64,000 nucleotides of DNA from Nemertoderma westbladi (lineage: Eukaryota; Animalia; Xenacoelomorpha): the NCBI GenBank assembly GCA_032718475.1, contig JAUCBJ010008622.1, positions 1 to 64,000 on the forward strand. Reading direction: 5' to 3'. The notes beneath the pieces were generated by a model. That model saw only the letters and a program-made list of their open reading frames with translations. It was not told the origin of the DNA and did no database searches. Positions 7,933 through 43,368 of this stretch are shown here, one piece after another. A program made the translations under genes and the position numbers. Numbering within the stretch: the first letter of the stretch is position 1; every line of letters starts with the position of its first letter.

Positions 7933-8063
7933 TTGTCTAATGGACTAGTTGTCTACTACTAATAACAAATGTGAGCTATCATATAACAATAGCTAGTAAT
8001 AATAATTCTGGAAAACAACCATAAACTTATTTTTTTTTTAATTCCGCAGGCTCTGAGAATAAT

Positions 8064-8275: not shown

Positions 8276-8927
8276 TAAAGGCTTATTGTAAAATTATGTG
8301 GAAATTTTTATATAATTTTGAATGTTTCTTTTGAGGTTGTCTCATTATTCCATGACTATTTATTACTAAATTACGAAATAGTATGCTATCAAATCAATAC
8401 GCCAAAATGAAATATGTTCACGTGCTGCGCGAAGTGTTTTTTGGCAAGCACTCTAAAATTATTTTAAAAGGTTGTTAAAAGTGGGTAGGGGTTTATTTGA
8501 TCCAAATTTCATTAAATCACATCGATCACATCCATTGAGAAATCACAAAATATGGATAGGGGATCCAATGGGAAAATAAAAGGAGATACCAGTACTGAAA
8601 ATAGAACATTTGAAATATATTGTTCTTAAACTTTAAATGCATTTATCTCGGAATTGTATTTTTCACATTCAAAATACTACTACTCAGCCATTTCTTAACC
8701 AATTTTCGAATTTTTTTTTGTTTGATTTCTTTTCGGGTTTTGATCAAAAGTTATCGGTTAGAATTTTGAATTGTGCCATATTAATTTCTTGAAATTAGTT
8801 AATATCTATTAAGTAATAATTAATATTAGTTAATAATATAAAATATACAAAATTACACACAAGCAGAAATTCTAGCCATTTTCAAAAAAGGTCCATAGGG
8901 GGGTGTACCCCCCCCCCCCCCCCTTAA

Positions 8928-18275: not shown

Positions 18276-18974
18276 TATACATACCAGAAATCAAAAGTTC
18301 AAACATATATAAAAGTACCGGTATATCTATACACACACACCATTAAAGTCACGTCATTTATGATACCACTGTTATTCTGTTATATATATAGGTATACATA
18401 ATATAACTGTACCGAGCATTTATATCCTGCTACTATTATTGGTTAAATATACACCCGTAATTATACTATACAGAGTGAAGAAATAATTCGAAAGTTGCAG
18501 TAGGTAATGCTACCGCATTACAGTGCAATTAACTGTCTAACTATACTACCTGTCCGGTAGGGTACTATGTGATTTGAGAGAAAATATTTGGGAAATAATT
18601 GGCCTACTGGTGCCACTCTAATAGCAGTAGTATGTTATGACATTGAAAGAAAATATTGGAGAAAAATTTAAATATTGCAGTGCAGTAGGCCTACCGGATT
18701 ACTTATGATATAAGTCATAACCTACTAAAAAACTCCTGAATATAAAAAAAGAAAATCTTGACTGAATATAAAAAAATAAAATCTTGAGAGAAAAATTCTG
18801 GTATATAGGGACAAAAATTATTTCGTTCATGTATTTCATATCAAATAACACAATCAACCACCAAAAATAATCCAGAATACCGGTATTGGTACCGGTACCC
18901 ATCCTAAGAATAATGTGGGCATGCCTACCGTACCAGTAACCTTTAGATAACATGGGTAACATTACAGGCTAACT

Positions 18975-19344: not shown

Positions 19345-22300
19345 GATAGATTGGGATAATAAACATCCAGATTCTCGTATTTAATATCCTTTATGACCTT
19401 ATTAACTGTATGTATTACATTTATTGTTGCATTTATAATATTAGTACTTGAAATGCAGATCTCATATCCAATATCTGGTCTTGTTTGATTAAAGATCCAC
19501 ATTGAGTTGTCCCAATACAGTATTAAATGATTTTTTACAATTATCATTTAGTTTATCTTCACTGTACTGATGCGATGGTCCTCAATTTCCCGTAGCTCTT
19601 GTTTATAGTTGTCTTGGCTAATAGTTATACCTTCAGTTGTTTGAATAAGCCTATAGCCTAAGGCTATATATTTAAAGGTACCAAGTTCTTCATGACTCAA
19701 TAGAAATTGTGATTAACCCGACTATCAAAAACTTATGTACCACTGTAAACAATATCATCAACATGGGTCACAGCAATTCCATGTAATGTACCCGATATCT
19801 TGTAAATAAACATTGCTGGATCAATCTTACTGACAGTCATGCCCAATTTTAACAATTGGTCCCTAAATCGTGTGTACCACATTCTAGGTGCATCGAACAA
19901 TCCATAAATGCATTTCTTTGGTTTCTATATTTTCTTTGGAATGTGACATTCTTTTGGAGGCTGAACATATACTTCATGTGAAATCCCCTGTAAAAAGGCA
20001 GCATGAACATCAAATGACTTGAGTTCCCAGTTGTTGCTCACTATTGTGGCCAAAACCATCCTAAAACTTACCTTACTACATATTGGTTAATCACAGCAAA
20101 CATCTGTAATTTCTTCGAAGCCCCTTGCTACAATACAAGCCTTGCTTTCACAAATTTATGACCATTGAGTTCTTTTTCTGTTAATATCATCAACAAACAT
20201 CATTTTCTTTCCAACTTGTCAGTTCTTTTACCTTAGCATCCATTATTTCCCGCACTGAATAAGTTTTATGGGTAACAGTGGTTACTAAAACTTCATTTAA
20301 GGTTTCATCTTTAATTTTCCATTGACTCACATAATCTGGCCAGTCTACACATTTTGGTTCCATTTCATCAGCAACTTTAATGTTTACAAATGTATTATAC
20401 TTCCCAGTTGACTTGAGTTTGCTTAATATCTTGCCTTCCTTCCATTGTTCAGATTCATATGGTCGAAATAAAACAGTATTTCGAATCTTTGGAATTATTG
20501 AACCATTCTTATAAGAATGTATTTCCGTATCTTTACTAATTTCAATTTGGTACCAAAAAGTTCAACCGTGTTCGTAGTAAAACATAAAGAAGCTCCAGCC
20601 TTTTTAAGTGATGTATTACTTAATAGTAATGGCAGATTATTGTCAACTCTATAAACACTGAAAGATGCCTAAGAAATGCTGGTATTTTAACCAACATATC
20701 TGATATAACAGGGTTTCCAACTCAAAATTTGAAAGGTGTGCAACAAGATGTAATTTATATTAATCTATCATCTTCTTCACTGAGAGTTTCCCTGTATATA
20801 TTCAACCAATCTCGCCCACAAACTGTATGCGTACAGCCAGTGTATGTCTATAATTACGCACGATAAAGCCTCCTTTACAAACAGGCAGCCGACCTCTGAC
20901 ACAGATTCCATAAGCCGATCAACATTACTGATCCCATTGACAGCTTCACCAATATCCCCTCACATGATTGAAAAAATGTGTAAAACACTCTCTCTCCATT
21001 TGTATTATCATAATTGTAATTAAAATCTGCATTATCTCTATAACTATCATCAAGAAATGCTTGGTGTAATTATGTTCTGTACTGTTGCAATTATAACAAC
21101 GTCGCACATATCCACTTGAATCAAACATATTGGCGAGCCCTGAAACTAGGTTGGCCAGATCTACCAGTACTGATACAAGATCCTCTGAATTGCAATCTTG
21201 GACCTCGTTGTAAATATCTCGATTAAAGTTACCCCTTTGAACCCAACCTCTTTGATCCCTCCTAGATCCATAAAAACCTCCCCTATGATCATTCACAAAC
21301 AATATCTCTGCATCACTATGAACCGGTTCAATCTTAATTTTATCCTCTCTTCCTCCAGTACCACTACCGGTAGCACTCACACTAATACCACTAGTGGAAC
21401 TTCCTTGCAGTACAAAGTCATATATCCTCAAAAGTGTGTCAGACATTCCCTCATAATTTCTGTAGTCGTAGCCATAGCCAAATATTTTTATCTCTAGCAA
21501 TTCACACTTTTTAACAGCCTATAAGCTAAAACAGGCCCAGGAAATTCAAATTTGTATTTTTTTATCTTTTCAACAAGACGCTCAAAATCTATAACAAATT
21601 CTCAATCAAACTATCTTTATCTCTAACAAATTCTTCAAATTCCGCATAAGACTGATACGCAGCCTGTGAATCTTTTTTTTAATGTATATATCAAGTTTCA
21701 GTAACACATGAGCAAGTCAGTTAGCCTGTTTTACCTGATCAACGCTAAGTGAGGATACAGCATCTTTAGGCTTACCTTTCAACTTCAAATAAACCGCCAT
21801 TCCATGTTTTGCTACAGGTAAACTTGTTAGTTCAGACCATACCTCTATGTCGAACTTCCACTGTTCATATTCATTCCTGCTGGCTTTATCTTTAAGCGCT
21901 GGTGGAATCTTCCACAATACACTACCACTGCCACCAGTCATCCCAGTTGTACTGGTAGGTCTACCTGTACCTCCAGTTGCCATATTAAAACTTAAAAGGT
22001 ACATATTCAATTAATTGTAATAGCAAACAGGCGCCACTCCGTTAATAGCAATAGGCCTAACTGTCTAATACAGTAGTAGTTAGGTCTACCCTAATTTAGA
22101 GTTCCCAGTTCTGCAATTTGCCATATACCAGTATACATACATCTACCAGCTGACCAGAACATCGATTTACAAATCTTCTTATTGCTGAGAACCAAGCTCT
22201 GCTACCAAAATGTGAAATAGATAAGGGGCCGTCCAAGTATGACGTCAGCACTTTAGGGGGGGGGGGGGGGGGGGGGTTAGGAAAATCTGATGACGTGCTG

Positions 22301-22648
22301 ATGAGGGGAGGGGATGGGGTCAGCCAAAATCTGACGTCAGCATGTTCATTTATAGGTGCTAGAAGAGATATAGCAGAAGAGTAAATACTGTAGCTTGCCT
22401 ATTTTAATTGTTAGAAGCCCCCAAAGGCCCGTAGCACGACCTTCTGTTTCAGTTACCAGTCACCATGTTTCAGTGATTAGGACGCGAAATTTTTTTTAAT
22501 CTGATTTAAGGGAGGGAGGGGGTCAACATTTTGGGGAAAAGTGCAGACGTCATACCTGGACGGCCCCTAATGTGATATAATACTCAGTTAATCATAACAT
22601 AAATCAGTCCTTCCTATTAGAATGCTAGCGTTCTAATAGGAAGGACTG
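19345..22648 (-). mobile_element. Copia LTR retrotransposon, GalEa-like, decayed; integrase not found
   Basis: PBS TGGTAGCAGAGC (tRNA-Met) at 22196-22207 after an LTR end at 22211. Gag PPAL...YEQWKFDIEVW; protease TGCTHTVCG; RT FDVHAAFLQG, IYGLFDAPRMWY, DPAMF, QTRPDI. Confidence 0.88.
22225..22567. mobile_element. PIF/Harbinger-type MITE inserted in the Copia LTR
   Basis: TAA|GGGGCCGTCCAAGTATGACGTC ... GACGTCATACCTGGACGGCCCC|TAA. Confidence 0.88.
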
Positions 22649-22850
22649 GTGAGTGTGAATGCTACCGGTAGTGGTACTGGAGGAAGAGAGGATAAAATTA
22701 AGATTGAACCGGTTCATAGTGATGCAGAGATATTGTTTGTGAATGATCATAGGGGAGGTTTTTATGGATATAGGAGGGATCAAAGAGGTTGGGTGCAAAG
22801 GGGTAACATTAATCAAGGTTCAGTACGGGGAAGATATAGATATATAGAGA
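22649..22850 (+). mobile_element. inverted copy of a Copia gag segment
   Basis: SVNATGSGTGGREDKIKIEPVHSDAEILFVNDHRGGFYG is nearly identical to about 21225-21385 on the opposite strand. Confidence 0.85.
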
Positions 22851-23132: not shown

Positions 23133-26100
23133 TCAGTCTGGTTTGAACGCTTCCATTCCTTTAGAATTAATCATGGCTTCGTTTGTTGTGTTTAAACCAT
23201 ATGGCTCAAGCGTCTGCAAGTTTGTCTGGTAGTAACCCTCTTTTATTCTCAGTGCCTGTTTCAATGTTTCGCTATTTAGATTTGTAACTCTCTCTATGGG
23301 TGTGGGGCGAGCCACGAAGTTGGCGGAGCCTTAGCGAATTGACACTGTTAGGGGGTGGGTCAATTTATGCAAATAGTTGTCGTCGTCGTCGTCGTCGTCG
23401 TTGTCATCGTCGTCGTCGTCGTCGTCATTGTCGTCGTCGTTACGATTTTGACATGCTAATAACTTTGTCGGATTTAAAGCTGCCAAGTTGAAAATTTGTA
23501 GGTATCAATATGAGCAAAAGTTGAGATTTTTGAGAGACTTTCAGACACCATCAGTGCAATGGTCTCCCGCTAGAGGGCCCCATGTCTAAACATTAAATGC
23601 CCTCCCATTTCTTTGCTTTTAATCCGTTTAAGCTGAAACTTGGCAGATATGTATTAGACCATTAGCTGTGACTTTCAAAGGAGGCGAATCCATCTGCAGT
23701 TCTCCAGTCTGCCGCTAGAGGGCCAAAGGTCTGAATGTGAAATCGTTGTCGTCGTTACGATTTTGACATGCTAATAACTTTGTCGGATTTAAAGCTGCCA
23801 AGTTGAAAATTTCTAGGTATCAATATGAGCTAAAGTTGAGATTTTTGAGAGACTTTCAGACACCATCAGTGCAATGGTCTCCCGCTAGAGGGCCCCATGT
23901 CTAAACATTAAATGCCCTCCCATTTCTTTGCTTTTAATCCGTTTAAGCTGAAACTTGGCAGATATGTATTAGACCATTAGCTGTGACTTTCAAAGGAGGC
24001 GAATCCATCTGCAGTTCTCCAGTCTGCCGCTAGAGGGCCAAATGTCTGAAAGTGCAATCGTTGTCGTCGTTATGATATTGACATGCTTATAACTTTGTCG
24101 AATTTAAAGCTGCCAAGTTGAAAATTTGTTTTGTTGAAAATAAGTTCAACAGTCACCCGCTATAGGACTACTTTATGCCTGAAAGTGAATAGATTCTCCC
24201 GTCTCATTGATTTTAATCAGTTTAAGCTGAATCTTGCCATATATTCTGGACCACATGCTGCGTCTTTGTGGGGGGGGGGGGGGAGATTTAATCGGTCTGC
24301 CGCTATACGACGAAATTTCTGAAAGTGAGATCCGTCTCTCATTTCGTTATCCGTTATTCAAGATGAAACTTGGCCGATGTACGTATGTACTATTCATCCA
24401 TAGGCTGTGTCTTTGTGGGGCTGGAGACCCTAATCCATCTTCAGTTCTCACTATACCGCTAGAGTCAGAAATGGCTGAATAGAAATGAAAGAGGTAAAAA
24501 GTGATTAGGCGAAATCTGCTTAAAATTTGCTAATACAGTAATACTTTCGAATTAGTACTTAAATTAAATTTAAGTCACGTGCTGCGCGAAGGCCCCACTT
24601 CGTGTTATCCTAAAGTCGTTGAAGTTGTGGTCTGCTTGGATAAAGTGCTGGTCAATTTTACAAGATGGTTTTTTTTTCTTGTTTGTTATTTGTGATTTGT
24701 AATTAGATATTCTTGCCTTGAAGTTCATTGCTGATCCGACTCCCTGTTTTCTGCATTTAAGACAGTTTACTAAATAAGTTACATTTTTCGTGTCACATGT
24801 TAAATTTTCATTTATCTTGTATTTAAACTTTTTATTCCTGGCTGTTGATGCGAACACTTTTAAAGGCATTATTGACTGGCCTGGTACACACTTTGCCCTA
24901 GTGCAATACGTTGCTTCTCCCTTTCTTGATTGGTTCTTGTCCCCCTCGTCCAGTTCTGGAATTTTGTACCTGGATGGTGCTAGATGGTTCTGTAATGTTG
25001 GTGCACGTCAGTGGACTACCTTTATTTTCAGTTTATTGAAAAAGTTATTTAGCTCGGGGTCATGCATGAAACTTGATTTGTGTTTTGATATGATTCTGGG
25101 CAATGAAGGCATTTTTGGCTCGTTCTTACCAACGTAGTATATTGTTTCTTTCTCTGGTCTCTTTTTTGTTTCTTTTTCCCTGCTTTTCTTGTATTCTAGA
25201 ACAGCTGCTGATGCAAATTGTTTTGTTACTTCACCAACATCCCAACCTCGTGCAACAAAAGCTGCGCCGAAGTTTACAAGCTGACCAAACAAGGCATCAT
25301 TTTGACTACAATTGCGTCGGAGGCGTAGGGCCACACCATAAGGAATATATTTTTTCTGTTCTTCATGGTGAGAGGTGGTGTTGTGCAAGTACTGATGTAC
25401 GTCTAGAGGTTTAAAATACGTATCTGTCTGTATTAAGCCTTCTTTCACCAATATATATTTTGAGATCTAGGTAATTTACTGACTTTCCTTTCTGCTCAAT
25501 GCAAAATGTTATTTTGCCTGGTTTAACTTCATTATTTAAATCAGATGTGAAACTTTCTAATTTAACGTCTATATCCGCTAAGTATAATGCCAAAATGTCG
25601 TCTCGGTAGCGACCATATTCTTCTGGAAAATTTGTGCTTTTATACGCCACTGTGTCAATCTTGTGAGCACCATAACCGTCTGTATAAGTGCATGAATATG
25701 AGGGACCCATAGCTGACCCGCTAGCCTGTGTATAATGTTGACTATTGAAGCTGCAATTGTTTGTTACTAAGCAAAGTTCTAAACCTTCTAAAATACATTC
25801 AGGGGGCGGCGATTCTGGTAATAAAAGGTCTTGATGCATTTCAAGTAATTCTCTGATACTGTCGAGGCTATCGGCATTATCAACACTTGGGAAAAAATTC
25901 GTTATATCTATACAAGCAAACTCTGCACTATCTGGAAGTGGTGCGTACTTGTTGTTGAACAATTCAATTTTGTCTAGTAAGTGCAAAGTATTCTTAATAT
26001 ACGAGTTGTGTTGCGTTGCTAGGGGTTTCAAAAAATATTCCAATAACTTGCCTAAATTCTCAGACGCAGTTCCGCAACAGGATAATATATTTCTAAGTGC

Positions 26101-26845
26101 CCAATCTCTCTTGTGTGTCTTAACATTTGCAAAAGCAGTTCCTGCATTTGCGTCTTTATTCACTATCCAATTTTTATTGTTGCGAATAACTTCTACGTGA
26201 TTCCACTTGTGAACAAATTTCTCAATGTCCTTTATATACTTCGGTGTTGGGTCATCTTCGCCATGCTGTTTAAACTGATTGTTGCTTTTTAGGTATGTTG
26301 TGACTCCTTTTTCGTAATCTTCTCTTTTTGTTATTACAAATCTTTTTGATCCTTTATCTTGCACACATAATAAAAATTCCTTATTACTTTTTAATTTTTT
26401 AAAAACTTTGCGTTCTAGAACAGTTAAATTATCATGTGTAAAACGAACATTCCTCGGGTTAAAAAGATCATCCCATACCGAAGCTAAAAAAGCTTCAACG
26501 TTTGGGTTTAAACACTTTGACTTATAAAACGTGTTTGTTTTCCATGGTGGTTTCCCTAAGTTGTGTTTATATTCTATTATATGTTGCTCTTCCAAAGTTT
26601 GTTGTTTCAATTTGGGCTTCTCTGTGATTTGATTGGTTTTTGTAAACAAAGTTTCCAACCTCATTTTCTCGAATCATGATCGAATTTGGCTTGCAAAAGA
26701 TGCATAGTCCAAATGGGCTTGTTGTAAATCGAAAGTAAAAGGTGTTGGTACAAATGAAGGCCCTTTGTTTAAAAGATAAATTTCTTCCGGTTCTGGTGAA
26801 AAATCTGGATGTAGCAATTAGGGTAATTACAGCAATACACAACAA
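23133..26845 (-). mobile_element. Penelope-like element (RT + GIY-YIG), probably Neptune-type; frameshifted and interrupted
   Basis: DITNFFPSV, QASGSAMGPSYSC, GRYRDDI, YLDL, IPYGVALRLRRNCS, VTYLVNCLKCRKQGVGS. The C-terminus ...FRIT|PIERV...EGYYQTNLQTLEPYGLN is split by the 23304-24601 insertion. Confidence 0.92.
23304..24601. mobile_element. non-autonomous element with (GTC)n tract and 315-bp tandem units (Crypton- or Helentron/HINE-like)
   Basis: Flanked by a GTGT direct repeat (23300-23303, 24602-24605). (GTC)n at about 23378-23440; units start at 23441, 23756 and 24071. No true TIR. Confidence 0.7.
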
Positions 26846-26986
26846 ACAAATCTGATATACTACTTACTGTATATACAATAATACTACTACAATTTTCGAT
26901 TATTTAACATTTGATTTTTTTTTCATAGTTAAAAAGATCAAAATTTTAAAAATAATCATAAAATATTTATAATATAAGGGAAAAAG

Positions 26987-27434
26987 TCAAGAATCGATGA
27001 TATTATCAACAAATTCAACAATATCTGCTGATTCTTCAGTCTCGACAAAGGATTCTTTTGAAATCATTACAATAGAGAAAGACATAATTTCGTAGGGATT
27101 ATGTCGATTTAGTTGTATTTCAAACTTTTCACCAGCTTCATTGTATTGTGTAATAACAATTAACCCATCTATCATTGATAATAGTAAGATGTTTTTGTAT
27201 TAATTTTCCCTCATGATCAACTTTTAGGTTGTAATCTGAGAGATGAATGGTATTTTCAGAAGCATCAATATCAATTGTGCTTAAAACTTTCCTGGCTTTT
27301 TCAGAAAAATCGATTTTATATTTATCATCTCCTTGGCGGTAAATTGTATAATCAATAACAATATAGGGTTTGCCATCTTCTGCAAAAAATGAATGCCTTA
27401 ATATTGGCATAACCATATCGGAATCAGAAGACAT
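26987..27434 (-). pseudogene. unknown ~150-aa acidic ORF broken by one frameshift
   Basis: Two overlapping ORFs (98 and 62 aa) with protein-like composition in very AT-rich DNA, upstream of the Penelope ORF. Confidence 0.35.
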
Positions 27435-27879
27435 TATTTAATTTATTTTATTGTAAATCAAACAAACAAAGTAAAAACTTTTAAACTAAAACCATTATAA
27501 ATGATTAATTGTGATTAAAGCAAGAGATTATATATAAGATATTTTCAAAAATAATACAGGTCTTAAACCATGAAATAGCCTAAATACGGTTTCTTGGTTG
27601 GTTGATTAGTTGGGAAATACAGTCAAATGAAAATCATTGGGTTGTGCGTAATAATAATAATCAATAATTATAATAAAAACATGCAGTATAATGTTAAGCA
27701 TCATATCAATATGGTACAGATGCGGTAGGGTTAGGTTGAGTAACTATGAAAATGTGACAACGTGTACGTGTACGCGTAGCGGGATTTCAAGTCTCATATA
27801 ACACTCACACTGGTGTTGGTTGGTTGGTTGGTTGGACTAGGACCTAGAGTAACTAGGACCAGACGAGCATCAGTCCAAT

Positions 27880-28543
27880 ATATGTTCTCTGTGACAAAAG
27901 TTAATTGATGTTGAACTTCACAAGCTAACTCTGAGGATAGTGTTGCAGCTAAAAGTTCCGCACATGGTATTGATAGATATGCTTGACTGCCAATTACTCT
28001 AGCCTTTGATGTGAGAAAGGAGACATCAACTTGCCCATCCGATGTTTCACGGCATAACTATAACACTACACCAATTGCTTTCTCACTAGCATCGCTGAAG
28101 GCATGTATTTGATATTTTGGATCTGTTACTTGAACAGGAAAATACCAACGAGGGATACGAACAGATGGCACTTGTTCAATCTCGCGTAACCATTGAGTCC
28201 ATTCATGTATAAGTGCTTGATTTGTCACTGGGTCATCCCAATCTAGTTTCAACTTCCATAACTCCTGAAATAACATCCGTGCAACAAGAACCACAGGACT
28301 GATGAATCCTATAGGGTCAAAGAATGATGCTAGCAAGCTCAGTATTGATCTCTTGGTCCAATGTTCTGGAGTTTTCCATTGCTTCCAGCGAATGTATAAT
28401 TCATCCGTGTTGGGGTTCCATCCGAGCCCCAGGGACTTGGACTCGGGGATTAACTCTACTATTAAGTTATTATCTTGAGCTATATGTAGACCTGCTGGAA
28501 TATGTTTAAGAAATTCTGTTGAGTTGTTGAAACCACCTCGGGC
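27880..28543 (-). mobile_element. BEL/Pao element 2, end of RT and RNase H
   Basis: CLARGGFN, VLGLGWNP, ASFFDPIGFISPV, LWKLKLDWDDP, IPRWY, HAFSDASEKAIG. Confidence 0.92.
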
Positions 28544-28896
28544 TAAACAATTTCAATTCAATTCTGTTTAATCATTTAAAATGACATTGTTGACGCACAC
28601 ATAAATAAAAATGGCGCAGATGCCATATAATAAAATAAGAGATAACACAATTAATTTAAAATATATCGTATCGGGACGATCAGTAAAACGTGGAATAGCT
28701 GTTGAATATTAATACACGTAATTAATGCACCGACTCTACCAACAGGTAAGATTACACGACACCCCACCTCCAATGCACAGTCAAACAAGTGGTAGACAGA
28801 GACAGAGCTTTGACAATTTAGTTATGAGTTGGTTACTATCGGCACAGATTGAAGGAAAAAATATATAGTACAATACGGCTATACGTCTGCAATGGG

Positions 28897-31720
28897 TTAA
28901 ATTATGTTGAAATATCGTAAGATTCGGTCGTGTCTCGCAGTGAAGGAGGATTGAGGAGAGCTGTAGCAGCTTTCTATGAAGTCCCTTTTTGACCGTTCTG
29001 TGACAGTTAGTGACCCTCCCTCTAGTCTCGATAGCAGGGCGTGTTTGCTGTAAGTATAGGTAAGTATGGATGACATGTCCGGCATAGGGAAGTATACACA
29101 GGATTTAGAGTATGAGCTTGCAAGGCCAGCATACGAGCATATGACAGCTGAATTGGTGAGAATTGCAGTTCTCAAGATGGGCTGTAGGATCATGTTCGGG
29201 CATGTTGTACATCTCAATATGGTGCCAATTGCTGCCCTGAAGGCTTCTGTTGATATCGGACGACAGTTGAGGAGGCTGTATACTATTTGATTGCTCGCGT
29301 ATGTTCTAAATGGAGAATTCCACGCAGCGCTTTACGATAATAAATGTCCAGCTGTGCTGCCTCGGACTGAGACAGAGACCCAATGATGAATTTCATTGAA
29401 TAAGTTAGTATTGGAACTGCAATCGAATTCCACATATGACCCAGTGTCTTTGTGCCAAGCCAACGCACAGTCCAGCTGTTCCTGTGGAAGGTGTCCGCTA
29501 CCAAAGCAATAGTGTGTATGCAGAATCCTAAGTTGTTCCCTTCGGGGGTGAATTTGTAGCCGAGAAAGGTCATGGACTGTTCGGAAGGTATTAGATTGCC
29601 GTTTGCTGTTAGAAATGTTGGGGCCTCCTTTGAGCTGTGGCCCTGACTGGGAAAGAAGGTCCACTTCGTTTTGCTGCTTTGAATGTCAAGGTCTACGTCT
29701 TTTAGTTCGTTGGTAATGATATTGATTAGCTGTTCCACCTCTAGTGTTGATTTGGCTGTAATTAGAATATCGTCAGCAAATGCTACGACGCCTAGCCATA
29801 TGTCGTTGATCCTAAATCAGTACCCTTTATTGTCTATCGTCCGCAGAGCGTCCCCTGTGTATAAGTTAAAGAGCAGCAGAGAGAGTAGGGAGCCCTGTTT
29901 GACTCCCTTTGACATGGGAATACCGACCAGTTCTATGATAGGGCCAAATTTTAGATGCACCACTGTACAGGTGTAGTACGCCAGTAGGGATGTGTGGGTT
30001 CAAAATATCTTTAAGCTTCTCGAAGAGGATCACGAAATTCACATTGTCAAAAGCGGCGGTTATGTCGAGCTGACACATGTAGATTGATTCCCCGGATGTT
30101 CGCTGATGCTCTATGCATTCGAGAATGGCTCCTAGCAGTAGGTCTGGGCCGATCCTCTGTTGGTATGCAAACTGGTTTGGCGGCACCAGTTGTTTAGAGG
30201 TGATAAATTCGTGGAGAATGATAGCCTCAAACATCTTGGCGAAAATACTGACAGTGGCAATTGGCCGGTACGAGGGGCGTAGGAGTGGATTTCGGCCCTT
30301 TCCTTTGTACAAGTGGGTAATTATTGTTTCTCCAAAGAGCTTGGGGACTTCTCCTAGTATAAAGCAGGCATTGATTATGTTTGCTAGAATTGGACATATG
30401 AGGTCTGCATCAAGGATGAGGAATTGTTCTACGACAAGGGATGCTATGTCAGGAGCCTTGCCTTTTGATAGCTGTGAAAGTGCCTTCCAAACCATTGAGG
30501 GAGATACTGTTGGGATGTCTGCTGATTTGCATTTCTCTCTAAGTTCCTGCTGCAGTCTCCGTACCTGGGGATCTGTATCCTTGTTTGCCAGATGTTCATC
30601 ATTGAGTTTGTCTCTAATATTCTCCTGGACACTTGATGGTGGAATTATGGATGATTTGTTTTTGAATTTATCCCAGAAATGTTTCGGATCTTTGTGAAGG
30701 AGAGTTGAGTTCCTATGGATGTCGTTTGCAACTAAGTTGTGGGAGAGCCAGTTTTTAAGCCGTCGCACTGAGCGTCGTGACTCTTTGAATGCCCCTTTCA
30801 GAACACTATCGCTGTCCTTGTCCTGCTTGCACCACATCTTATAAAGCTCCTTAGTTGTTTTAGACCTTTCCTGAAGAATAGTCGACCATATTCTAATGTT
30901 TTTGGAGAGCTTGAATTTCTTGCGTAAAGGTAGTGTGGATACTGCAGACTGGAAGATGATATCCTGAAGGCTGTTGGAATATTCATCCAGGTTTGTGTAA
31001 GTCCATTCGGTGATGGGCACTCCTGACTTAGCCTGCAGTTCTTGAATACCTTCACCAACGAGCCTGTTGTACGTAATGACATGGTCCGCTGAGACCTTGT
31101 CCCATGCGAATTTAGTTAAGTGTACTCTTTTCCTTGTGGTGTTGTTGTCTAAAGTGGGTGGGACTTGTATGTCAAAGTTTACAAGAACTGGAACATGATC
31201 GGAGGAATTGTTAATGGGATCTGATTCGAGTATCTTGCCGTGTGTGACCATTTCAATGCCATGGGTCATATCAGTTAAAACGTGATCTATATAGGAGCTG
31301 CCATTTCCACGAAAAGTTATAGTGGGACCTGTAAATTTCGATGATGTGTCAGCAGCGCAGAGATTATTTGAGTGTAGAAAGTTATTAAGTTGAGTCCCTC
31401 TTGGGGTGGCACTGCGTCTCTGAAATCGTGGTCCTTGTAGGGGGACAAGATCGCCATTGGTGTCACAGAGAATGATTGGTGTGGCATTGAGGTTTGCCTC
31501 GAGTATTCCCTCCAACCTTCCAAGAAAATCATTGTATATAGATGAATCTTTGCTGATGTCAGGGGCATAACATGAAAGGATCAGCAGTGGGTTACTCTGC
31601 CCATGCAAACTCCCTCTGATTCCTACAATATCGTCGCCAGAATGGATAGGGGAAATGTCTTTGAGTAGGTCAGCCTGGTACCAGAGCGCTACGCCACCTG
31701 CACCATGCCGAACCATTGTA
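28897..31720 (-). pseudogene. LINE ORF2: partial APE endonuclease and reverse transcriptase
   Basis: GGVALW, CDTNGD, SYIDHV, SDHVPV; YRPIATVSIFAKMFE, QFAYQ, LDITAAFDNV, GVKQGSLLSPLLF, AFADD, FLGY. Several frameshifts and stops. Confidence 0.92.
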
Positions 31721-33409
31721 GTTTTCTGGGATTTCCACTGGCAACATTTGATGCTGGGGTGCCAGAAGTCTGGGCTGTACATGATATCCTAATGTACGCT
31801 ATCTACTGTTAACCGCATGTTTTGCCATGAGTTGTGATGCCAGACCTTAGTGTAGTGGACTTTAATGTCTCTGGTACATAGAAACTCTTCTAAGTCTTTA
31901 GTACTGAAGTTTTTCTTAATTCCTGTTATGAACATGTATGCATATGGGGGTTGAGGTCTGTTACCCGATTGATAGGTACCTCTGGTGCTGGTAGGTTCAT
32001 GGTTTGTGTTGCTGGTCCCATTGCTTGGTCGGAGGAAGCCTTGGTTATCTTCTCTTGTTACTGACTCATGCGGTATGTTGCGAGATCTAGGTGCAACGGA
32101 AATTTGTGATTTCCTAGATGGATGGGGTAATTGATTTGTGTTTGTGGTTGAAGATGGATAAAATTGTCCAGGGTTTGATTGCTTTATATGGCTGTTGTGT
32201 AGAGGGTGTGGGTTTGGGTTAGAAACTGAGGCTCTGGGTATGCTGCTAGTGTTCATTAGTAGTGAACCCCTCTGTTGGGCAGATAATTCATTGTCGTGTT
32301 GTTGTTGTAGTTGCTGAGAGGGAATTGGTTGTTGTTTGCCACTTAGTCCTATGTTAGCACAAGTTCTAGTGGGGGAATGATTGACCCAGTTAACCTTGCT
32401 GGTTTCAGAGATCGCGGCAAACCTGTTACTAGTGTTTGTTGAACTCCTAATACTATTGATGTGGTCTCTTGAGGATCTAGCTGGGTGTCTGGTTTTTGGT
32501 TCCTCCCATGGCTTGGCTGGTGCTGATGATGAGTATGCATTTGGATTAACATCATTATTTTCTACACCCTTTTGCAGTTTGGCTGGGATAATGGGATTTA
32601 GTTTATTTTTGACTGAGTCTAACTCAGTTAAGATGTGGGTTATCTTTGCCTCTAACACTAAGCGTGAATGTCGCTCGTTACTAGCCTCTTCCTGTAGGTT
32701 TATATTCCTTTGCTTGAGGTAAATGTTGTCATTCTCAATCTGGGTCATCCTGGTGTTTGAATTACTGCAACAGCTGTTATTAAGTCTTGTTTCAGTTGTT
32801 GATAGGAATTATTGTCAGACAAATCGGGGTTCACCTTCCTCAGACGTTTCCGGCACACCTCAGACAGACTGCGGTCTTTTACACTGTGCATCAGCTCAAA
32901 TATATCTATAGCTGACTCTTTACCTGATGACCGTGAGACAAGTTCCAGTGAGACAGCTTGGGTCGGAGACATGAAAGGTTTCACATCATGAAACAGCTGA
33001 TCTCTCTATGATGAAAGCAAGCAAGTGTCCAGGCTCGCAAGTTGTTTTGTGAATTGTTTACGTGAGATAGTTAAAAGAGGTGACAAGTCAAAGTCACTAT
33101 ATGTAGGGAAGAGTGAGACTGAGACATGCGGTAGATTGGATTGAGCGGGGATAGAGCCTACCAGACATCTGTTGTCACTTGTTACTACGTGTATTGCTTT
33201 GCTGATTGGAGAATGCGCTGGTATACTGAGGCCAGGTTGCCATTGCTCAGATCGGTCTTTTCCCTGTTTGGTTGGTGACTCTGTTGATAAGCCAGTACCC
33301 TTAGCCTTAACATTCGTAGTAATAATAGGACTCATAATATTTGACTTGAGTGGTGCTAGGGTAAATGACAAGTCCATTTCAATATCCTTGTGTGGTGTTA
33401 GCTTAAAAT

Positions 33410-34010
33410 TGGATAGACACCTCTTTATCCAATCCCGAGCTTCATCACTATCCCTGTAAATCGAAGAAATGTGATTTTGCATTTGTGCAGCAGCAAGTAC
33501 ATAGAGACACAGAAATAGCCCACAGTCATATGTGTTTGATTGTTTACTGTAGGCTGGTGGAAAACCAGTAGCCATCCACTGCCCACTGCTACCCAGTGCA
33601 TTGGAAGTCCGTGGATTTGAGGAGTCAATCTTGTTCAGCAGTTTAATTATGTCGAAAGTGCACGAGTTTGGTAGGTTATGACCAATGGAGTCCAAAAGGT
33701 ACATTGTTTTGTGACGTGTGTCAGCAATATGCAAAACATAATGGGTGCCTCTCAGAACCCCATTCTGGTCGTGTTTGACAACACACTGTGGAAAAAATAA
33801 AATTGAGGGTGGATGTGATAGGTGTCGGCAGATGTAGCGTGGTGCTATGAATTTAATGGCACTGAGAAAATCCCAACCCGGTAAACTTAGTTTGAGTGTA
33901 AGGAGGCTGGAAATAGCAGCCGTGAATGGAAATTGTATTTCCAGGATTCCAAGAAATCCATCTATGATGTCATTGCTAATCCATTTAGTTGAGTTTAAAG
34001 TACACAGAGC
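33410..34010 (-). CDS. Ulp1/SENP-like cysteine protease domain (peptidase C48) within ORF 33006-34157
   Basis: TLNSTKWISNDIIDGF, THYVLHIAD (His), YLLDSIG (Asp), KQSNTYDCGLFLCLY (Gln, Cys). All catalytic residues are present. Confidence 0.9.
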
Positions 34011-34289
34011 TTGATCAGTTGGAACACAAAAGCTAGGGGCTGTGGGCAAAAGCCCATGTTGATATAATGAAATATATTTTGTTTGATCTACATTATTCCC
34101 ATCTTTGTCATTCGGGTGAAATTCAAAATGGTCCAGGAAAACAACCTGCATGGCCACATGTCACTAAATTTTGTAGAGAACCCACAGAACTGCTTCTCTG
34201 GACTTTGAAGAAATCTGTAATCTTACTAATACCTAAACTTGTTTTGTTCTGCACACTTGAGACTCCAGGATGACCTAGATTGGAGTTCT

Positions 34290-35075
34290 TGGAAACCGGA
34301 TGGGAACTCGGCGGATTGGAATCCGGATGGGAACTTGGCGGGTTGGAGTACAGATTGGAACTCGGCGGGTTGGAGTCCAGGTGGGAACTCGGCGGGTTGG
34401 GGTCCGGATGGGAACACGACGGGTTGGAGTCCGGATGGGAACTCGGCGGGTTGGGGTCCGGATGGGAACTCGGCAGGTTGGAATCCGGATGGGAACTCAG
34501 CGGATTGGAGTCCGGATAAGAACTCGGCAGGTTGGAGTCCGGATGAGAACTCGGTGGGTTGGAATCCGGATGGGTACTCAGCGGGTTGGAGTCCAGATGG
34601 GAACTCGGCGGGTTGAAGTCCAGATGGGAACTCGGTGAGTTCGAGTCTGGATAGGAACTCGGCGGGTTGGAGTCCGGATGGGAACTCGGCAGGTTGGAGT
34701 CCGGATGGGTGCTCAGCGGGTAGGAGTCTGGATGGGAACCCGGTGAGTTGGAGTCCGGATTGGAACTCGGCAAGTTGGAGTCCGGATGAGAACTCGGTGA
34801 GTTGGAGTCCGGATTGGAACTCGGCGAGTTGGAGTCCGAATGGGAACTCGGCAGGCTGGAGTCTGGATGGGGACTCGGCGGGTTGCAGTCTGGATGTGAA
34901 CTTGGCGAGTTGGAGTCCAGATGGGAACACGGCATCGGCGGGTTGGAGTCTGGATGATAACTCGGCGGGTTTGAGTCCAGATGGGAACTCGGTGGGTTGG
35001 AGTCCGGATGAGAATTCGACAGGTTGGAGTCCGGATGGGAACTCGGCGAGTTGGAATCCTGATGGGAACTCGTAG
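34290..35075 (-). repeat. 27-nt coding tandem repeat (SSHPDSNPP)n, about 28 units
   Basis: CCGGATGGGAACTCGGCGGGTTGGAGT repeated. Confidence 0.95.
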
Positions 35076-35779
35076 AGACTCGAGGAACTCGAAGATTAGT
35101 AGAGTATTTTTTGTTGGAATCATAGCCGGCACTGCTGGAGAAAGTTTCGTCCACCTTACTGGCTGGTGTGGATGAAGTTTCATCACTAATTTTTACTTTA
35201 CTGGTTACGGTGACATTTTGCTTCTTGTTTGGCCTCGAACCCGGGGCTGCCTTTTGCATAGAGGTAGGCGATGGTTTCCCCTTACTTCTTGTGTGTGGTC
35301 CACTATTTATCTTATTGGTTTTTACTTTTGTTAAATCTGTAGCAATTTTAGTGGAGCTTGCAAACATTTTTGTAGCCCATTAGATTTTTCCCCCTTCTCC
35401 CTGTTTGTTTTTTGTGTGGTGTGCTAGTAGCAGTTCTTGTGATAGGTTGGGGGGATGTAGAGCTAGTACCAGTATTTGATAAAATTTTTACCGGTAAACC
35501 TACTTGAAACTGTACAAACCCCATATGATTCGTGTCCTCAATGGTTGTAGTCTGTATGAAAGTACTCTCCCCGGACGGTTCATCTTGGGTGTGGTTAGAC
35601 AATGAGTCACCCCAGCCCAGGTCATTGGCTGTATGGATGACCGCGCCTTTCCGAACCGGGGTTGACGGTGTGAAAACGGCATGTCGCTGGCATGCGTGTG
35701 TCAGCGTCGCACCGGAAGGAGCGGACGAGTAGATAGAGTAACCCATCGCAGGTATAGTCCCGGAGGGATCGGGCGAGAA

Positions 35780-36560
35780 GCTCGAGGAACCCGTATTCAT
35801 CACCCCGGAGGGGGTGGAAGAGAAACTCGAGGAAACCATCGTCGTCATCACCCCGGAGGGGGTGGAAGAGAATCCCGATGAACCCATCGTCGTCGTCACC
35901 CCGGAAGGGGTGGAAGAGAATCTCGAGGAACACGTCGTCGTCATCACCCCGGATGGAGTGGATGAGAAACTCGAGGTACCCGTCATCGTCGTCACCCAAT
36001 AGGGGGTGGAAGAGAATCCCGAGGAACCCGTCGTCGTCGTCACCCCGGAGGGGGTGGAAGATAAACTCAAGAAACCCGTCATCATCGCCCCGGAGGGGGT
36101 GGAAGATAAACTCGAGGAGCCCGTCATCGTCACCCCGGAGGGGGTGGAAGATAAACTCGAGGGGCCCTTCGTCGTCGCCCCGGAGGGGGTGGAAGATAAA
36201 TTCGAGGAGCCCATCGTCGTCATCCCAGAGGGGGTGGAAGAGAGACAAGAGAAGCCTGTCGTCGTCACCCCGGGTGGGGTGGAAGACCCTTCCATCGTCA
36301 TCGCCCCGAAGGGGGTGGAAGATAAACTCGAGGAGTCCGTCGTCGTCACCCCGGAGGGGGTGGAAGATAAACTCGAGGGGCCCATCGTCATCACCCCGGA
36401 GGGGGTGGAAGATAAACTCGAGAACCCCGTCGTCATCGCGCCGGAGGAGGTGGAAGATAAACTCGAGGAGCCCGTCGTCATCACCCCGGAGGGGGTGGAA
36501 GATAAACTCGAGGAGCCCGTCGTCGTCACCCCTGCGGAGGTGGAAGATAAACTCGGGAAA
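35780..36560 (-). repeat. 42-45-nt coding tandem repeat (GSSSLSSTPSGVTTT-like), about 18 units
   Basis: CACCCCGGAGGGGGTGGAAGATAAACTCGAGG core repeated. Confidence 0.95.
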
Positions 36561-36599
36561 CCCGTTAACAAACCGATGAACCGATAAACCGATAAACAA

Positions 36600-36890
36600 C
36601 CGATGAGTCCTATAGCAACTTCTATTTCATGTTTAAGTTGATCACCAGAGCGGGGGCAATCATCTACATACATATCTCTCTTGATGGTGATCTCCACATC
36701 TTTATTGTAATCATCTCCGAAATCATGCCCACATTGATTGACAGCATTTATCACTACACAAGGGGAGTCTAGTTTACCAAACACATGTACAGTGAACCTG
36801 TAATCGATTGGCTCACCTTCCAGGTCATCATTGTCCCACCAGAGGAATCGTAATGCATCTCTGTCTTCCACAGGAACATATACCTGATTT
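36600..36890 (-). mobile_element. BEL/Pao element 2, RT core upstream of the LINE insertion
   Basis: EDRDALRFLWW, YRFTVHVFGKLDSP, DMYVDD. Confidence 0.92.
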
Positions 36891-38669: not shown

Positions 38670-39400
38670 TCATATGAAGTAGATAAGAGATGGAAGGAAC
38701 AAAATAAGATGCATTGAAACGTCATTGAGAGATTCAACACCATCAGTAGTAGTAGTGGATGATATTTCTGTGGTTTCTTGACTGGTAGCTGGAGTGATTG
38801 GGAGAGTGGCCTCAGGTGTTGTTGTTGGAGGTTTGAGGGATAATGTTATCATGTCGTGACCAATATAATATTCAAATCCTGCTTCCAAACCTGTTTCCAA
38901 AATGTGCTTTTTATCTGCGTAAACAAATACTGTTAAAGATACTGTACCATAGAATATATCATCACCAGAGCAAACTTCTACACCATAGGCGAAGTTGATA
39001 GTTCCAACATCTCGTGAAAACTTTGCCGAGATAACGACAATAATATCAGCGATAGTCCAAATTGAACAGGGAGTGTAGGTCATGTTATAGCTGATTGGTA
39101 CTTGAGATATAATTTCTTTGATGGTATGCAATGTGCCATCTAAGAGCACGCTGTCGGAGAATACTCTGTATTTATTTTCCAAATCTTCGTTTAACTCAGC
39201 AGTACTGATATTGGGATCGTTTCCAATAAATTGTATATCCACCAGGATAGAACCGCAAGTAATATTCATGCTTAGCACTGTGGCTATTTCTTTTACAAAA
39301 TTTTCTATGACATCCAGGTCTTCCCATGATCCATCACGTATGAAGTTCTCGCATTCACTTTGTGTAGCATTGATAACAAACATCAGATTGATAGTGTTTC
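38670..39400 (-). CDS. terminal exon of a mucin-like surface protein: SEA-like folds, Thr-rich stalk, GPI-type hydrophobic tail
   Basis: Phase-1 acceptor TTTTATAG before 39400. ITCGSILVDIQF resembles the SEA GSxxV motif. C-terminus DGVESLNDVSMHLILFLPSLIYFI*. Confidence 0.75.
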
Positions 39401-39524
39401 CTATAAAACAATATTGCCAAACATTATTTTCGAACTACAAAAAATAATTCTACTAAATTTATCACAAATACCACGTATATAAACTGGAATTATCCCATAA
39501 ACTGAGTAATTAATTATAAAGTGG

Positions 39525-39662
39525 CATTGATGTCAGCATACAATGGTCTATGACGTCAGCATACATGGTCAGTGATGTCAGCATACATGGTCTGTGACGT
39601 CAACATACATGGTCTGTGATGTCAGCATACATGGTCTGTGACGTCAGCTTACATGGTCTGTG
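39525..39662. repeat. 21-bp minisatellite (intronic)
   Basis: GTCAGCATACATGGTCTGTGA about six times. Confidence 0.85.
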
Positions 39663-40959
39663 TAACTAATTATTCATCAAATTGCCATGGAATGTTCAAA
39701 ATGCCAGTTAATCACATCAAAATAGTTTTCTCTGTTATGCACTTCTGGTCCATTGATTTGTAGAAATTGCTGTAGCAGTGGACTAATTTACTAAATGGGT
39801 ATTGCCTTTAGTTCATCTTTCTCTCGTTTTTGGAGTCATTATTAATTTCTCAGTCGAATCAAAATGTTATCAGAGTCATGTTGTAACTACTGAAATGGTT
39901 AGTGTTGTGTAGAATAATGGTTGTCACATGGCGCCAAAAATGTAATATACTTGCGAAAAACATCCTGTAATGACCTCAGGAACCAGGAAACCCAAAGTAA
40001 TCTTATAATTTATGGGAACAAGTTAGACTACAACTGGTCAGCTACCTGTATCAGTTTGTTGCTAGCAGGACATTGTACACCAAGATTACACATCTGCCTA
40101 CATCTATGTTACCATTTGCTGTTACCATCAGGAATACATCAGAGTTTATTAAATTTATTTAGGAACAATTGGACTTTTAGACTCCAACTGTATATTTGCA
40201 TTCTCTGATTACGTACAGCAAGTCTGTTTGAAATATATAATATATTCATGTTTTGGTGCAATCTTTCTCCAGATTAATTTGCAACCCCCTCCTTCTCCCA
40301 AAGCTGCAACCCCCTCCCTCTACCAAAGCAATACAATGCCTTTATAATAAAACTATTACTTAGCTATTCATATGTAAATTAAATATTGAAGAATATTGTT
40401 TATATGTTTGTTTATACAGTTCTGATTCATCCAATTGTGAGAATTTACTTCCCCGGTTGGTATTTCTGCAGCAGGGTAGGTTTGAGAAGGGACATAGTGC
40501 CGCTCATAACCATTGTGGTCAGAAGGATAAGCTCAGTTATCTCTAGAAGGCGATTATCAATAAAGATGTCACAATAAAAAAAGGCAAAGAACAGCCATTG
40601 AAACTGTGCATATGGTAAGTCTCACAAAGTCTCAACAGATCTAATTTTGTAATTAAAATTAACTTGTGAGTGGGCTTTATCCCCCTACCAGTGGAAGCCT
40701 TGGGTGGTTGGCACACTCATGCTTCAGACTTCAGACATGTTTTTACCTGGGCTACAATATCGATGGGGTACAATAAATAGTATGATACTATATTTTTGTA
40801 CAGTTAACTTTTTGTTAGTTATTTTGACTTGATTATCAGGTTATAACATGATAATAGGCCAATTGTGTAATAGTTTGAGAAGAAAAATTTTGAAATTAAT
40901 TATGCGTTATTTAAATAAGAAATGGGAATATATAGCACTCAGGGCGCTACTTAACTAAC

Positions 40960-41617
40960 TAGTTGCATCTGCAGTTGTTTCATCTGTAGTTTGAGCTGCT
41001 GTTGTTTCATCTGTCGCTGTTGGAATTGCGGTTGTTAAAACTGTAGTTGGAGCTGTGTTTGTTGGAGCTGTCGTTGTTGGAACTGTGGTACTATCTGTCT
41101 TTGATGAAGCTGTAGTTGGAGCTTCTGCTGTGGTCGGAATGGTAGTTGGTGCTGTGGTTATTGGAACTGTGGTTGATGTCGCTGTTGGTGGAACTGTAGC
41201 TTTAGCTGTTGTTGAGGAAGCTGAGGTTGAGGCTTCTGCTGTGTTTGGAGTGGTAGATGGTACTGAGGTTATTGGAACTGCGGTTGATGTAAATGTTGTT
41301 GTTGGAACTGTTGCTGTAGCTGTCATTGTAGCTGTTGTTGTTAGAACTGTGGTAGTAGCTGTGGTTGTTGGAACTGACATTGTAGCTGTTGTTGTTGGAA
41401 CTGTATTAGTAGCTGTGGTTGCTGGAACTGTGGTAGTAGCTGTAGTTGATGGAGCTGTAGTTGGAGCTTCTGCAGTTGTTGGAGCGGTAGTGGGCACTGT
41501 GGTTATTGGAACTGCGGTTGATGTAGCTGTTGTTGTTGGGACTGTGGTAGTAGCTGTAGTTGATGGAACTGTATTTGTGGCTGTGGTTGTTTGAACGATA
41601 GTTGAGGCTATGGTTAA
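40960..41617 (-). CDS. Thr/Ala/Pro-rich mucin exon, 3' part
   Basis: Open frame TTATTTVPTTT...; phase-1 donor A|GTTAGT at 40960/40959 is compatible with the 39400 acceptor. Confidence 0.75.
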
Positions 41618-43233
41618 CCCTTTCAGTACCAATCATTTTCAAAAACCGTAATTGATGCGCCAATAGAATTTTGGTTGTTATTTAGGAAACCCGAAGTAAG
41701 TCCGGAAGTCCTATGTAAGTCCGTGTAAGTCCTATGAAAAAATGATGAAAGTCAAAGTTGTGGAGAATCATATACTTAGTCGAATGGAGAAACAAAATTT
41801 CAATTTTATATATAACTAATATTGTTTATAATTAAATAGTTATTAAATTTGGCGATTTAAGAAAAATGTAAGTCCTATGCAAAAATGTTGAAAGTCAAAG
41901 TTGTAGAGTATCATATACTTAGTCCAATGAGGAATAAAAGTATCAATTTCAATTACAACTAATATATTTATAACGAAACTCTCTCTTTATAGAGGTACCG
42001 GCTGACCGGTACTTTAGGTGGTAGTTGGTGTAGGAAAGAATGACCCTCAATAATGTGGGAACATATTTCTATATTAGGATTTATTTTTAAATTTTGATAT
42101 CGTGTCCTCCATGACCGATAGCTCACTCGGTAGATCGCCTGTATTCAGATGTGGAAGTTGTGGGTTAAATGCCGGAACATGGATTGTCTTTTATTAAAAT
42201 AAGTTTCATTCACATCCAGCCAGGGCGTAGTGTATATCATTAGGCCTATAGGCCTGCCGTATCTAGAACTACCAGCGTACTAGCATATAGACTGTAGTTT
42301 TTCCACACTACGTTAGGGTAGTAGTGTTTAGTAACAGAAGCAAAATTTGAATTGGTGATAAGTAATGATGAATGACCAACTAACCAAAACATTTAGACAT
42401 TCCAAAAGGAACTTTCCATTGACTTGGAAGGTTTACTCAATCTATAACCAAAACACTAAACAGCCATTAACCATTAACATTAACCACCACTAATATTGTA
42501 TCATTCAGCGAGCGACCTTCCTGTTTTATAAAGTGCAGAAATGGTTAAAACAACCTTCATCAACAAAAATTACAACCTAGTTTCAGTCCATGTCGCTTTG
42601 GCCAATAAATATAACCAAAACACTAAACGCGACCATCTTATATCAAATAAGTTCTGATTGTTATAGTACCATAAAAAGCGAGTCAGACATATCTATTTGA
42701 TAATGTGCTGAAGTGGTTTTAACACGTATGTACAGTACCAATCCTATGTAATAAGCGGAATGCAGAAATGCACTACTGTATATTGGCTACAATTTGGTGC
42801 ATGCAGTTTGTAATTGTCAGGCAGTCTGATAGGTCCCAACCATGGTTTAGATTTTTGAAATTTTTTTATAGTTTTTCTTATGCGCCAGATAAATTTGAAT
42901 GGTGCCACTTTTGCGCCAATGGCAACTAATCACCCATAGATACTTATTGAATCTATGGGGATTATCCTGTTTGGGGGGCCTCCAAAACCAGGCTGGTTAG
43001 TAAAGGAGCAGGTTACAGAGGCGAGTTGAAAAGAACCAAAACAATAAACGTGAGTGAATGTTGTAGAATAGAAAACCAAATTTAAAACCAAATTTAATTA
43101 AGAATCAACTGTCAGATGTATAGACCTACCGGAACTCTGAATAGACTGCAGGCCCCCAAACAGGATAGAGCCAATCTATGGCCAAGGCGCCTATTGACGT
43201 GGAATGCATGGATGAGCCATGGTACTGAAAGGG
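41618..43233. mobile_element. piggyBac-like non-autonomous element inserted in the mucin exon
   Basis: TTAA|CCCTTTCAGTACCA ... TGGTACTGAAAGGG|ATAA. Confidence 0.85.
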
Positions 43234-43237
43234 ATAA

Positions 43238-43368
43238 TAAACCTGTCATTGTAGCTGTGGTTGTTGGAGCTATTGTTGTAGCTGCAGTTGTTGAAACTGT
43301 AGTTGTGGCTGTGGGTGTTTGAACGGCAGTTGTAGCTGTTGTTGTTGGAACTGTAGTTGGAGCTGGAA
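43238..43368 (-). CDS. Thr-rich mucin exon, 5' part
   Basis: Phase-1 acceptor TTTTTTAG|TTCCAGCT. Reads PAPTTVPTTTATT...MTGLL and is in frame with 41617 once the transposon is removed. Confidence 0.72.

Follow-up and report, generated by a model that had tools for sequence, protein, structure and literature searches.

A decayed APE-type LINE of Nemertoderma westbladi with a Ulp1/SENP-family protease domain in its ORF1 region

In a 64-kb window of the Nemertoderma westbladi genome (the whole stretch analysed, positions 1 to 64,000 of contig JAUCBJ010008622.1) we identified a decayed copy of a long interspersed nuclear element (LINE) with an apurinic/apyrimidinic-type endonuclease (APE), which carries a Ulp1/SENP-family (C48) cysteine protease domain in the region of its first open reading frame (ORF1). 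We propose that this protease, in the native element, removes SUMO from host proteins, and we give this reading as a whole about even chances. The LINE lies on the minus strand at 28551-36592, is about 8 kb long and was inserted as one unit. Its domains follow each other in the order repeat array, motif resembling a PCNA-interacting peptide (PIP), protease, helical segment, coiled coil and C-terminal region, and then APE and reverse transcriptase (RT) in ORF2. Ulp1-like domains are already known in several unrelated transposon classes, and, judged from sequence, the ORF1 region of an APE-type LINE would be a new setting for them.

The first-pass annotation of this DNA had described an 8-kb unit bounded by a 7-bp target-site duplication (TSD) and a TTGAA tail, and this description holds. 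TAAACAA (plus-strand letters) stands as a direct repeat at 28544-28550 on the tail side and at 36593-36599 on the 5' side; the same heptamer is present in 141 of 20000 random 60-nucleotide (nt) stretches of the window. The minus-strand tail comprises about 2.5-3 TTGAA units (28551-28566), so that both the TSD and the simple-repeat 3' tail of a LINE are found, and the stretch between the last ORF2 stop and the tail (28567-28899) is presumably the 3' untranslated region (UTR). At the other end, about 27 nt of junction filler (36566-36592) are a patchwork of short words copied from the target flank. The host of the insertion is a BEL/Pao pol gene, pieces of which lie on both sides: the flank at 28058-28552 matches Peptidase_A17 in a Pfam search (E=7e-27), and the RT-like text of the other flank (36600-36889) belongs, to judge by its motifs, to BEL/Pao pol as well.

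We compared the region 28200-34285 with four public sequencing runs (X1-X4), which represent at most three samples from three studies, X2 and X3 sharing one sample; the substitutions, joints, loose ends and pieces reported here are among those listed in that comparison. Contigs of X1 (record 2) and X3 (record 18) bridge the junction on the tail side, which means that both of those samples have the same insertion; the window itself may derive from one of them. The 3' end shows a depth peak at 28555-28590, and an X4 contig has 34 nt of this region with unrelated sequence on both sides; this part of the tail may be common to other elements. One contig of X4 reaches from the tail over just 1.35 kb of the 3' end (28553-29898) and then runs into 19 loose letters, which appear similar to a cDNA template-switch adaptor. 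This contig is a hint that the LINE family is transcribed in another sample. No RNA dataset stood among the 6 runs listed as carrying the sequence, which speaks neither for nor against transcription.

ORF2 (28900-31710, minus strand) has APE upstream of RT, the arrangement of an APE-type LINE. APE matches PF14529 above the cut-off (E=1.4e-7) and shows GGVAL at 31698, CDTNG at 31467 and SSDHVP at 31206; RT, with YRPIA at 30270 and FADD at 29780, matches PF00078 in three pieces, of which the C-terminal one reaches E=4e-15, and is followed by a C-terminal region. In this copy, ORF2 is broken at 29989, 29819 (a stop) and 29305. APE and RT lie inside the unit as annotated earlier, with the qualification that the APE is truncated here: comparison with the Mytilus protein P0003 shows that about 70 N-terminal residues are missing. 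A deletion at 31711-31715 probably removed about 320 nt, namely the end of ORF1, the spacer and the start of APE. A joint contig in X1, X2 and X3 connects 31716 to 31710 with extra sequence, ~320 nt long in X2 record 13, and the colinearity with P0003 points to the same site. The only relatives of ORF2 found were three Mytilus proteins (P0001-P0003; 3 of 7914 candidates), at 25-27% identity. These distant proteins, compared by ORF2 only, are colinear with the LINE through APE, linker and RT, and by their motifs are presumably RTE-X-like. With the N-terminal part of RT, P0001 scored 47 bits, an RTE-like RT of the window 31 and a CR1-like RT of the window 25. Tentatively, and again by motifs, we label the LINE ORF2 RTE-X/Proto2-like. 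The clade list was supplied by PMC5753468.

The protease domain (33381-34145, minus strand) was recognised by structure-database, Atlas, fold and residue comparisons. Its best match in the PDB was yeast Ulp1 (1euv, E=1.8e-7), followed by SENP1/2, and 12 of the 13 matches were Ulp1 or SENP structures. All seven matches from a search of 1.84 billion representatives were C48 proteins, none of them close (23-36% identity), and 27 of 30 Atlas matches shared the C48 set (score 0.95). The catalytic and clamp residues are present as Trp 33983, His 33743, Asp 33692, Gln 33542 and Cys 33524; in alignment A1 the His, Asp, Gln and Cys positions do not vary and keep the family order of C48, which agrees with the earlier description of an intact C48 protease. 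A structure model derived from aligned C48 proteins, and for that reason biased to C48, had a pLDDT of 70.4 and a pTM of 0.75. Its top fold matches were SENP5, SENP3 and SENP1 (Z 21-23, root-mean-square deviation 2.1-2.6, 185-190 residues), and the SENP5 match (Z 23.1, deviation 2.1, 185 residues aligned) identifies the SENP fold. The domain thus has the fold, the His-Asp-Cys triad, the Gln and the first Trp of yeast Ulp1 and human SENP1/2/3/5, but shares only ~20% identity with them, has Tyr after the catalytic His and has diverged in the substrate-contact stretch. Other searches returned little: a search of the viral fold library gave nothing but distant giant-virus Ulp1-like proteins, and metagenome scans gave no confirmed pattern match (0 of 113 and 0 of 166). 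The word-index protein searches matched none of 465 near-length candidates with the protease itself and, with alignment A3 as the query, none of 7535 longer ones, both of which are weak evidence.

A tblastn search with the protease detected a second such domain elsewhere in the window, on the plus strand, split into 58746-58859 (39% identity, E=5e-6) and 63091-63660 (33% identity, E=7e-33) by an element of 4.2 kb (58893-63100). The intervening element is DNA transposon-like (32-nt inverted ends, 91% identical; flanking duplication of 3 or 5 nt), and a long decayed frame within it (59247-60875) matched no family convincingly. We consider the second domain to be part of a decayed relative of the LINE at 57.6-64 kb, here termed element B. 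On the plus strand, B consists of a 21-bp coding-frame array (57892-58523; repeat scan and tblastn), the N-terminal part of C48 (58650-58892, frame change near 58860) and, within 63097-64000, the C-terminal part of C48 (His 63259, Asn 63310, Gln 63451, Cys 63469), a linker and a helical segment shared with the LINE, open to the window end. Its C48 domain scored 31.7 bits in Pfam, above the cut-off of 20.7, and keeps His, Gln and Cys. The frame then stays open over 301 codons and reaches a segment that shares 49% identity with LINE 32889-33005, crossing the position of the LINE's stop at 33008 without a stop of its own.

LINE and B share three colinear segments (array, protease and next domain), and their protease domains form one clade (100/100) in an 8-row tree that omits the near-duplicates P0011-P0015 and the two-domain protein P0009. 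Across 254 codon pairs the amino-acid identity is 37%, and the values for codon positions 1/2/3 are 46/65/36%. The proportion of synonymous differences (pS) is 0.80, at which synonymous sites are saturated, and nonsynonymous divergence (dN) is 0.63. These values and the shared segments show that the protease and the next domain are an old unit kept by selection.

We then consider the substrate. A profile made from the two elements found Ulp1 at E=1.3e-12, SENP1/2 at 6e-10 to 4e-6, adenain at 0.033 and SENP8 at 0.4, and on this basis the sequence favours a SUMO protease over a NEDD8 protease; SUMO is probably the substrate. The strongest competitor, which we nevertheless find unlikely, is a native protease that acts not on SUMO but on ubiquitin or NEDD8, for example on those carried by PCNA or by ORF1 itself, where it would offset degradation. 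It draws on the low identity with SENPs (15-23%), a NEDD8 protease among the fold matches of the model (Z 18.3), an Atlas cluster named SENP8-like at rank 3, the Phe-Phe stretch of SENPs, which the LINE protease has not retained, and the PIP-degron-like motif described below; the profile, however, puts Ulp1 and SENP1/2 nine to eleven orders above SENP8. Somewhat less likely again is a protease that cuts its own long ORF1 and frees the coiled-coil/RNA-binding part, like the polyprotein processing of viral CE-clan proteases. While the unusual length of ORF1 (~1,220 codons) and the presence of CE-clan viral proteases among the matches (ASFV pS273R at Z 13.7, and adenain in the profile search) would suit self-processing, cellular SUMO proteases score far above these, at Z 19-23 and E values down to 1e-12.

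From a likely start at ATG 35367, which opens a low-complexity N terminus (35073-35367, minus strand), ORF1 can be followed through 405 + 463 + 346 codons, ~1,220 amino acids in total. Its frame shifts twice, once near 34150-34166 and again at 32753, and meets in-frame stops at 33008 and 31791, which leaves three broken pieces; of the giant ORF1 annotated earlier, the region with protease and coiled coil is there, and an intact frame is not. Both tandem arrays reported inside the unit were recovered. The 27-bp array (34289-35072, minus strand; 28.8 copies, ~29 units) lies within a frame open over 35379-34123 and, if translated, would form a Ser/Pro-rich stalk of 9-residue repeats; in a unit-by-unit selection test neither it nor the 21-bp array showed a frame preference. 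The 45-bp array (35781-36555, minus strand; 17.1 copies) lies upstream of the likely ATG, in other frames, which run out at 35622 or 35348, and may not belong to ORF1; if the earlier annotation counted it in, ORF1 was made too long there. The array is rich in CpG (observed/expected 1.03 versus 0.73 for the window). One minus frame and its plus-strand mirror show a synonymous excess (20/35, expected 0.25) and its CpG changes run 14:1 by strand, in both cases counted over units that are not independent. It could be a repeat of the 5' UTR or, alternatively, a coding repeat upstream of ORF1, and the 61-nt repeats ahead of element B may be a 5' UTR repeat too.

Immediately N-terminal to the protease (34195-34230, minus strand), a pattern scan found ITDFFxxxR, the sole match to the PIP-degron core in the six frames of the 64 kb. 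The PIP degron signature reads Q/N-x-x-hydrophobic-T-D-aromatic-aromatic-x-x-x-R/K (PMC3973308); PMC6312923 gives a PIP-box pattern. Positions 4-8 and +4 agree with the signature; position 1 is Ile in place of Q/N, and we therefore call the motif PIP-degron-like only. C-terminal to the protease, the helical segment common to element B (32868-33005, minus strand; sequence comparison) matched no Pfam or PDB family. A likeness to the death fold, considered for this segment, found no support. The coiled coil (32581-32800, minus strand) is predicted from heptads at 32581-32754, with hydrophobic a/d positions at 0.75 in the best of 7 registers; the frame change at 32753 within it is absent in X1-X3. 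An RRM-like end of ORF1, also claimed earlier, was not confirmed. The C-terminal region (31716-31971, minus strand), whose stop at 31791 is absent in X2 and X3, has neither a Pfam nor a PDB match, and its likeness to RRM comes from its motif shape; of the coiled coil and RRM of LINE ORF1 proteins, it is the heptads that were found. The coiled-coil/RRM piece as a whole retrieved only unnamed clusters in the Atlas search (scores 0.85-0.86).

The other runs preserve much of what is broken in this copy. Relative to the window, X1, X2 and X3 have indels at 32753, 29989 and 29305; each is of the size that accounts for the frame change there, and the one at 32753 keeps a single frame. The stop at 29819 is missing from X1-X3, and that at 31791 from X2 and X3 as well. 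Record 3 of X1 differs by 26 substitutions and 24 gap letters in all; none of the 20 substitutions in ORF2 creates a stop, so that X1 has an ORF2 stretch free of stops from 31705 on to its end. An unbroken path from protease to coiled coil, with no joint, is seen in X1 record 6 (31716-34149) and X3 record 23 (32096-34149). The architecture claimed at first pass, a C48 protease in the ORF1 region of an APE-RT LINE, gains support from the X1-X3 contigs and from element B, and in active copies ORF1 is very probably a single frame. Between this copy and the other samples we scored 10 synonymous and 19 nonsynonymous changes (29 of at least 40 substitutions, not counting 4 that fall in the flank and 7 of the 3' UTR), a split that is expected for decay and hence useless for dN/dS.

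Several observations weigh against the reading of the LINE as a carrier of a native SUMO protease. The frame 33006-34160 scored 17.4 bits with Pfam Peptidase_C48 (PF02902), a weak match under the gathering cut-off of 20.7. The His-Trp pair of the family is His-Tyr in the LINE; the C48 bias of the fold model counts here too, and a model from the single sequence reached a pLDDT of 35.5. In element B, Asn replaces the Asp of the triad, the PIP-like motif was not seen, and the part that would establish B as a LINE lies beyond the window end; in the LINE itself the motif was noticed post hoc. Contigs of X1, X2 and X3 all break at 34149-34167, the place of the other ORF1 frame change, the ORF1 contig of X1 retains both stops (none of its 8 substitutions falls at 33008 or 31791), and a fully open ORF1 was not seen among the run contigs. 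Two further observations on this side each underlie an alternative.

The first is an unexplained 18-nt inverted repeat, found by a repeat scan, whose arms (32736-32753 and 34265-34282, 17/18 matching) flank the protease module. Resampling of the 1.6-kb stretch produced a comparable pair in 1 of 2000 trials, and that of the 5.7-kb stretch in 8 of 600. The inverted repeat is the main support for the idea, to which we assign a low probability, that the module (32736-34282) is a cassette of its own, e.g. a non-autonomous DNA transposon bounded by short terminal inverted repeats, which inserted into ORF1 of a LINE of ordinary type, with element B as another cassette host; DNA transposons with C48 genes are indeed known (PMC4948706). 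However, the symmetric flanking duplication measures only 2 nt, excision of the module would break the frame, and in other samples the module is in frame with the coiled coil. By eye, the heptad pattern seems to run through arm 1, and arm 2 resembles a degenerate final unit of the 27-bp array. A third arm with at least 14/18 matches is absent from the window, and none lies near B.

Second, the ORF2 contigs of X1 and X3 stop at 31705, so that another 5' part is conceivable. The protease-bearing ORF1 would then be one of several swapped 5' parts of the same ORF2, with most RT copies lacking the protease, and swapping of ORF1 has been described in CR1/L2 elements (PMC4120745). Summed depth is also higher over ORF2 than over ORF1 (X1 ~93 versus 36, X2 120 versus 55, X3 205 versus 179), but the usual 5' truncation of LINEs looks the same and fits this excess, and no protease-skipping joint appears among the joints listed; we hold this reading to be just as improbable as a cassette. 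Taking the depth ratios as copy numbers was rejected, since X2 and X3, from one sample, give discordant ratios and depth is not copy number.

Among DNA transposons, Zisupton carries a C48 protease. NeSL of nematodes and Utopia-1_TSP are non-long-terminal-repeat elements with a Ulp1-like cysteine protease, which, as in the LINE described here, is N-terminal to RT (PMC4640811). Theirs is a single protein in which zinc fingers and RT are followed by a restriction-like endonuclease at the C terminus, whereas here APE precedes RT and the protease stands in a separate ORF1 region ahead of the coiled coil; the NeSL/Utopia arrangement, a restriction-like endonuclease after RT and no APE, is not what we find. 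The Kaonashi (KI) C48 Mutator-like elements of plants also have a transposon-borne peptidase C48, of function stated as unknown (PMC4948706). In these elements and in Zisupton, which are DNA transposons, the protease is a second gene or belongs to a transposase unit, and not to an RNA-binding ORF1. These papers agree with the statement made at first pass that Ulp1 domains occur in NeSL/Utopia and in Mutator-type DNA transposons. The ORF1s of CR1, L2 and Jockey elements are modular, with PHD, esterase and CCHC domains beside RRM, and their domains turn over frequently (PMC4120745, PMC13343379). In having accessory domains they resemble the LINE, but the words protease and peptidase are absent from the main texts of these two surveys. 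Our literature search found no precedent for an APE-type LINE with Ulp1; Repbase, Dfam and subscription journals, which lay outside its scope, may contain one.

The remainder of the window is rich in other elements. Minus-strand pieces at 8853-12429, 25008-28552 and 36600-36889 are presumably BEL/Pao-like gag and pol (by motifs, with Peptidase_A17 by Pfam), 25008-26673 contains what by its motifs is presumably a Penelope-like RT, and 44505-47988 is a GC-rich, presumably Gypsy-like pol with RT, RNase H and integrase text, likewise by motifs. Three related RTE-like RTs (75-80% identical) and a CR1-like APE/RT fragment lie at 14408-15787, 52196-53534, 3015-4407 and 16363-18290, and fragments of a DDE_1 (pogo-like) transposase at 49996-50999 (E=3.6e-6). 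Long inverted repeats at 6519-7934, 21218-22817 and 4909-5317/48106-48500 are probably foldback or miniature inverted-repeat transposable elements. A single-frame membrane protein of 414 amino acids at 1505-2749, which by eye resembles an MFS transporter, is likely a host gene. Thr-rich mucin-like repeat exons and a SEA-like C-terminal exon, again judged by eye, lie on the minus strand at 38670-43365 and 56487-56817, and the introns of this mucin-like gene may hold the neighbours of element B.

LINE ORF1 proteins bind and chaperone their own RNA (PMC4120745). By analogy, the intact element would likely make a single ORF1 protein of ~1,220 residues that coats its own RNA; its coiled coil and C-terminal region, like those of other ORF1 proteins, would trimerise and bind RNA, and the protein would keep the protease on the ribonucleoprotein behind a flexible repeat stalk, from where it could strip SUMO off proteins of the host or of the element in its vicinity, perhaps at PCNA. 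If all this holds, the odds are balanced that its purpose is to blunt either SUMO-dependent silencing or a SUMO-dependent control over proteins of the element, with the PIP-degron-like motif possibly directing it to PCNA. It is tempting to speculate further about an old APE-LINE lineage whose SUMO protease in ORF1 is tethered to PCNA via the PIP-degron-like motif and whose ribonucleoprotein deSUMOylates host silencing or replication-fork proteins, as a defence encoded by the LINE against SUMO-dependent silencing, but this fuller version is unlikely.

SUMO is needed for piRNA-guided silencing and for recruitment of SetDB1 in Drosophila (bioRxiv 10.1101/533091), in line with the requirement invoked in the first-pass annotation. 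A protease domain in the ORF1 region of an APE-type LINE, selected in two long-diverged elements, would represent an independent case of a transposon-borne Ulp1-like domain, and one now tied to a protein that travels with the element's RNA. As piRNA-guided silencing requires SUMO in Drosophila, this small, complete domain offers a suitable test of whether transposons encode a deSUMOylase as a counter-defence.

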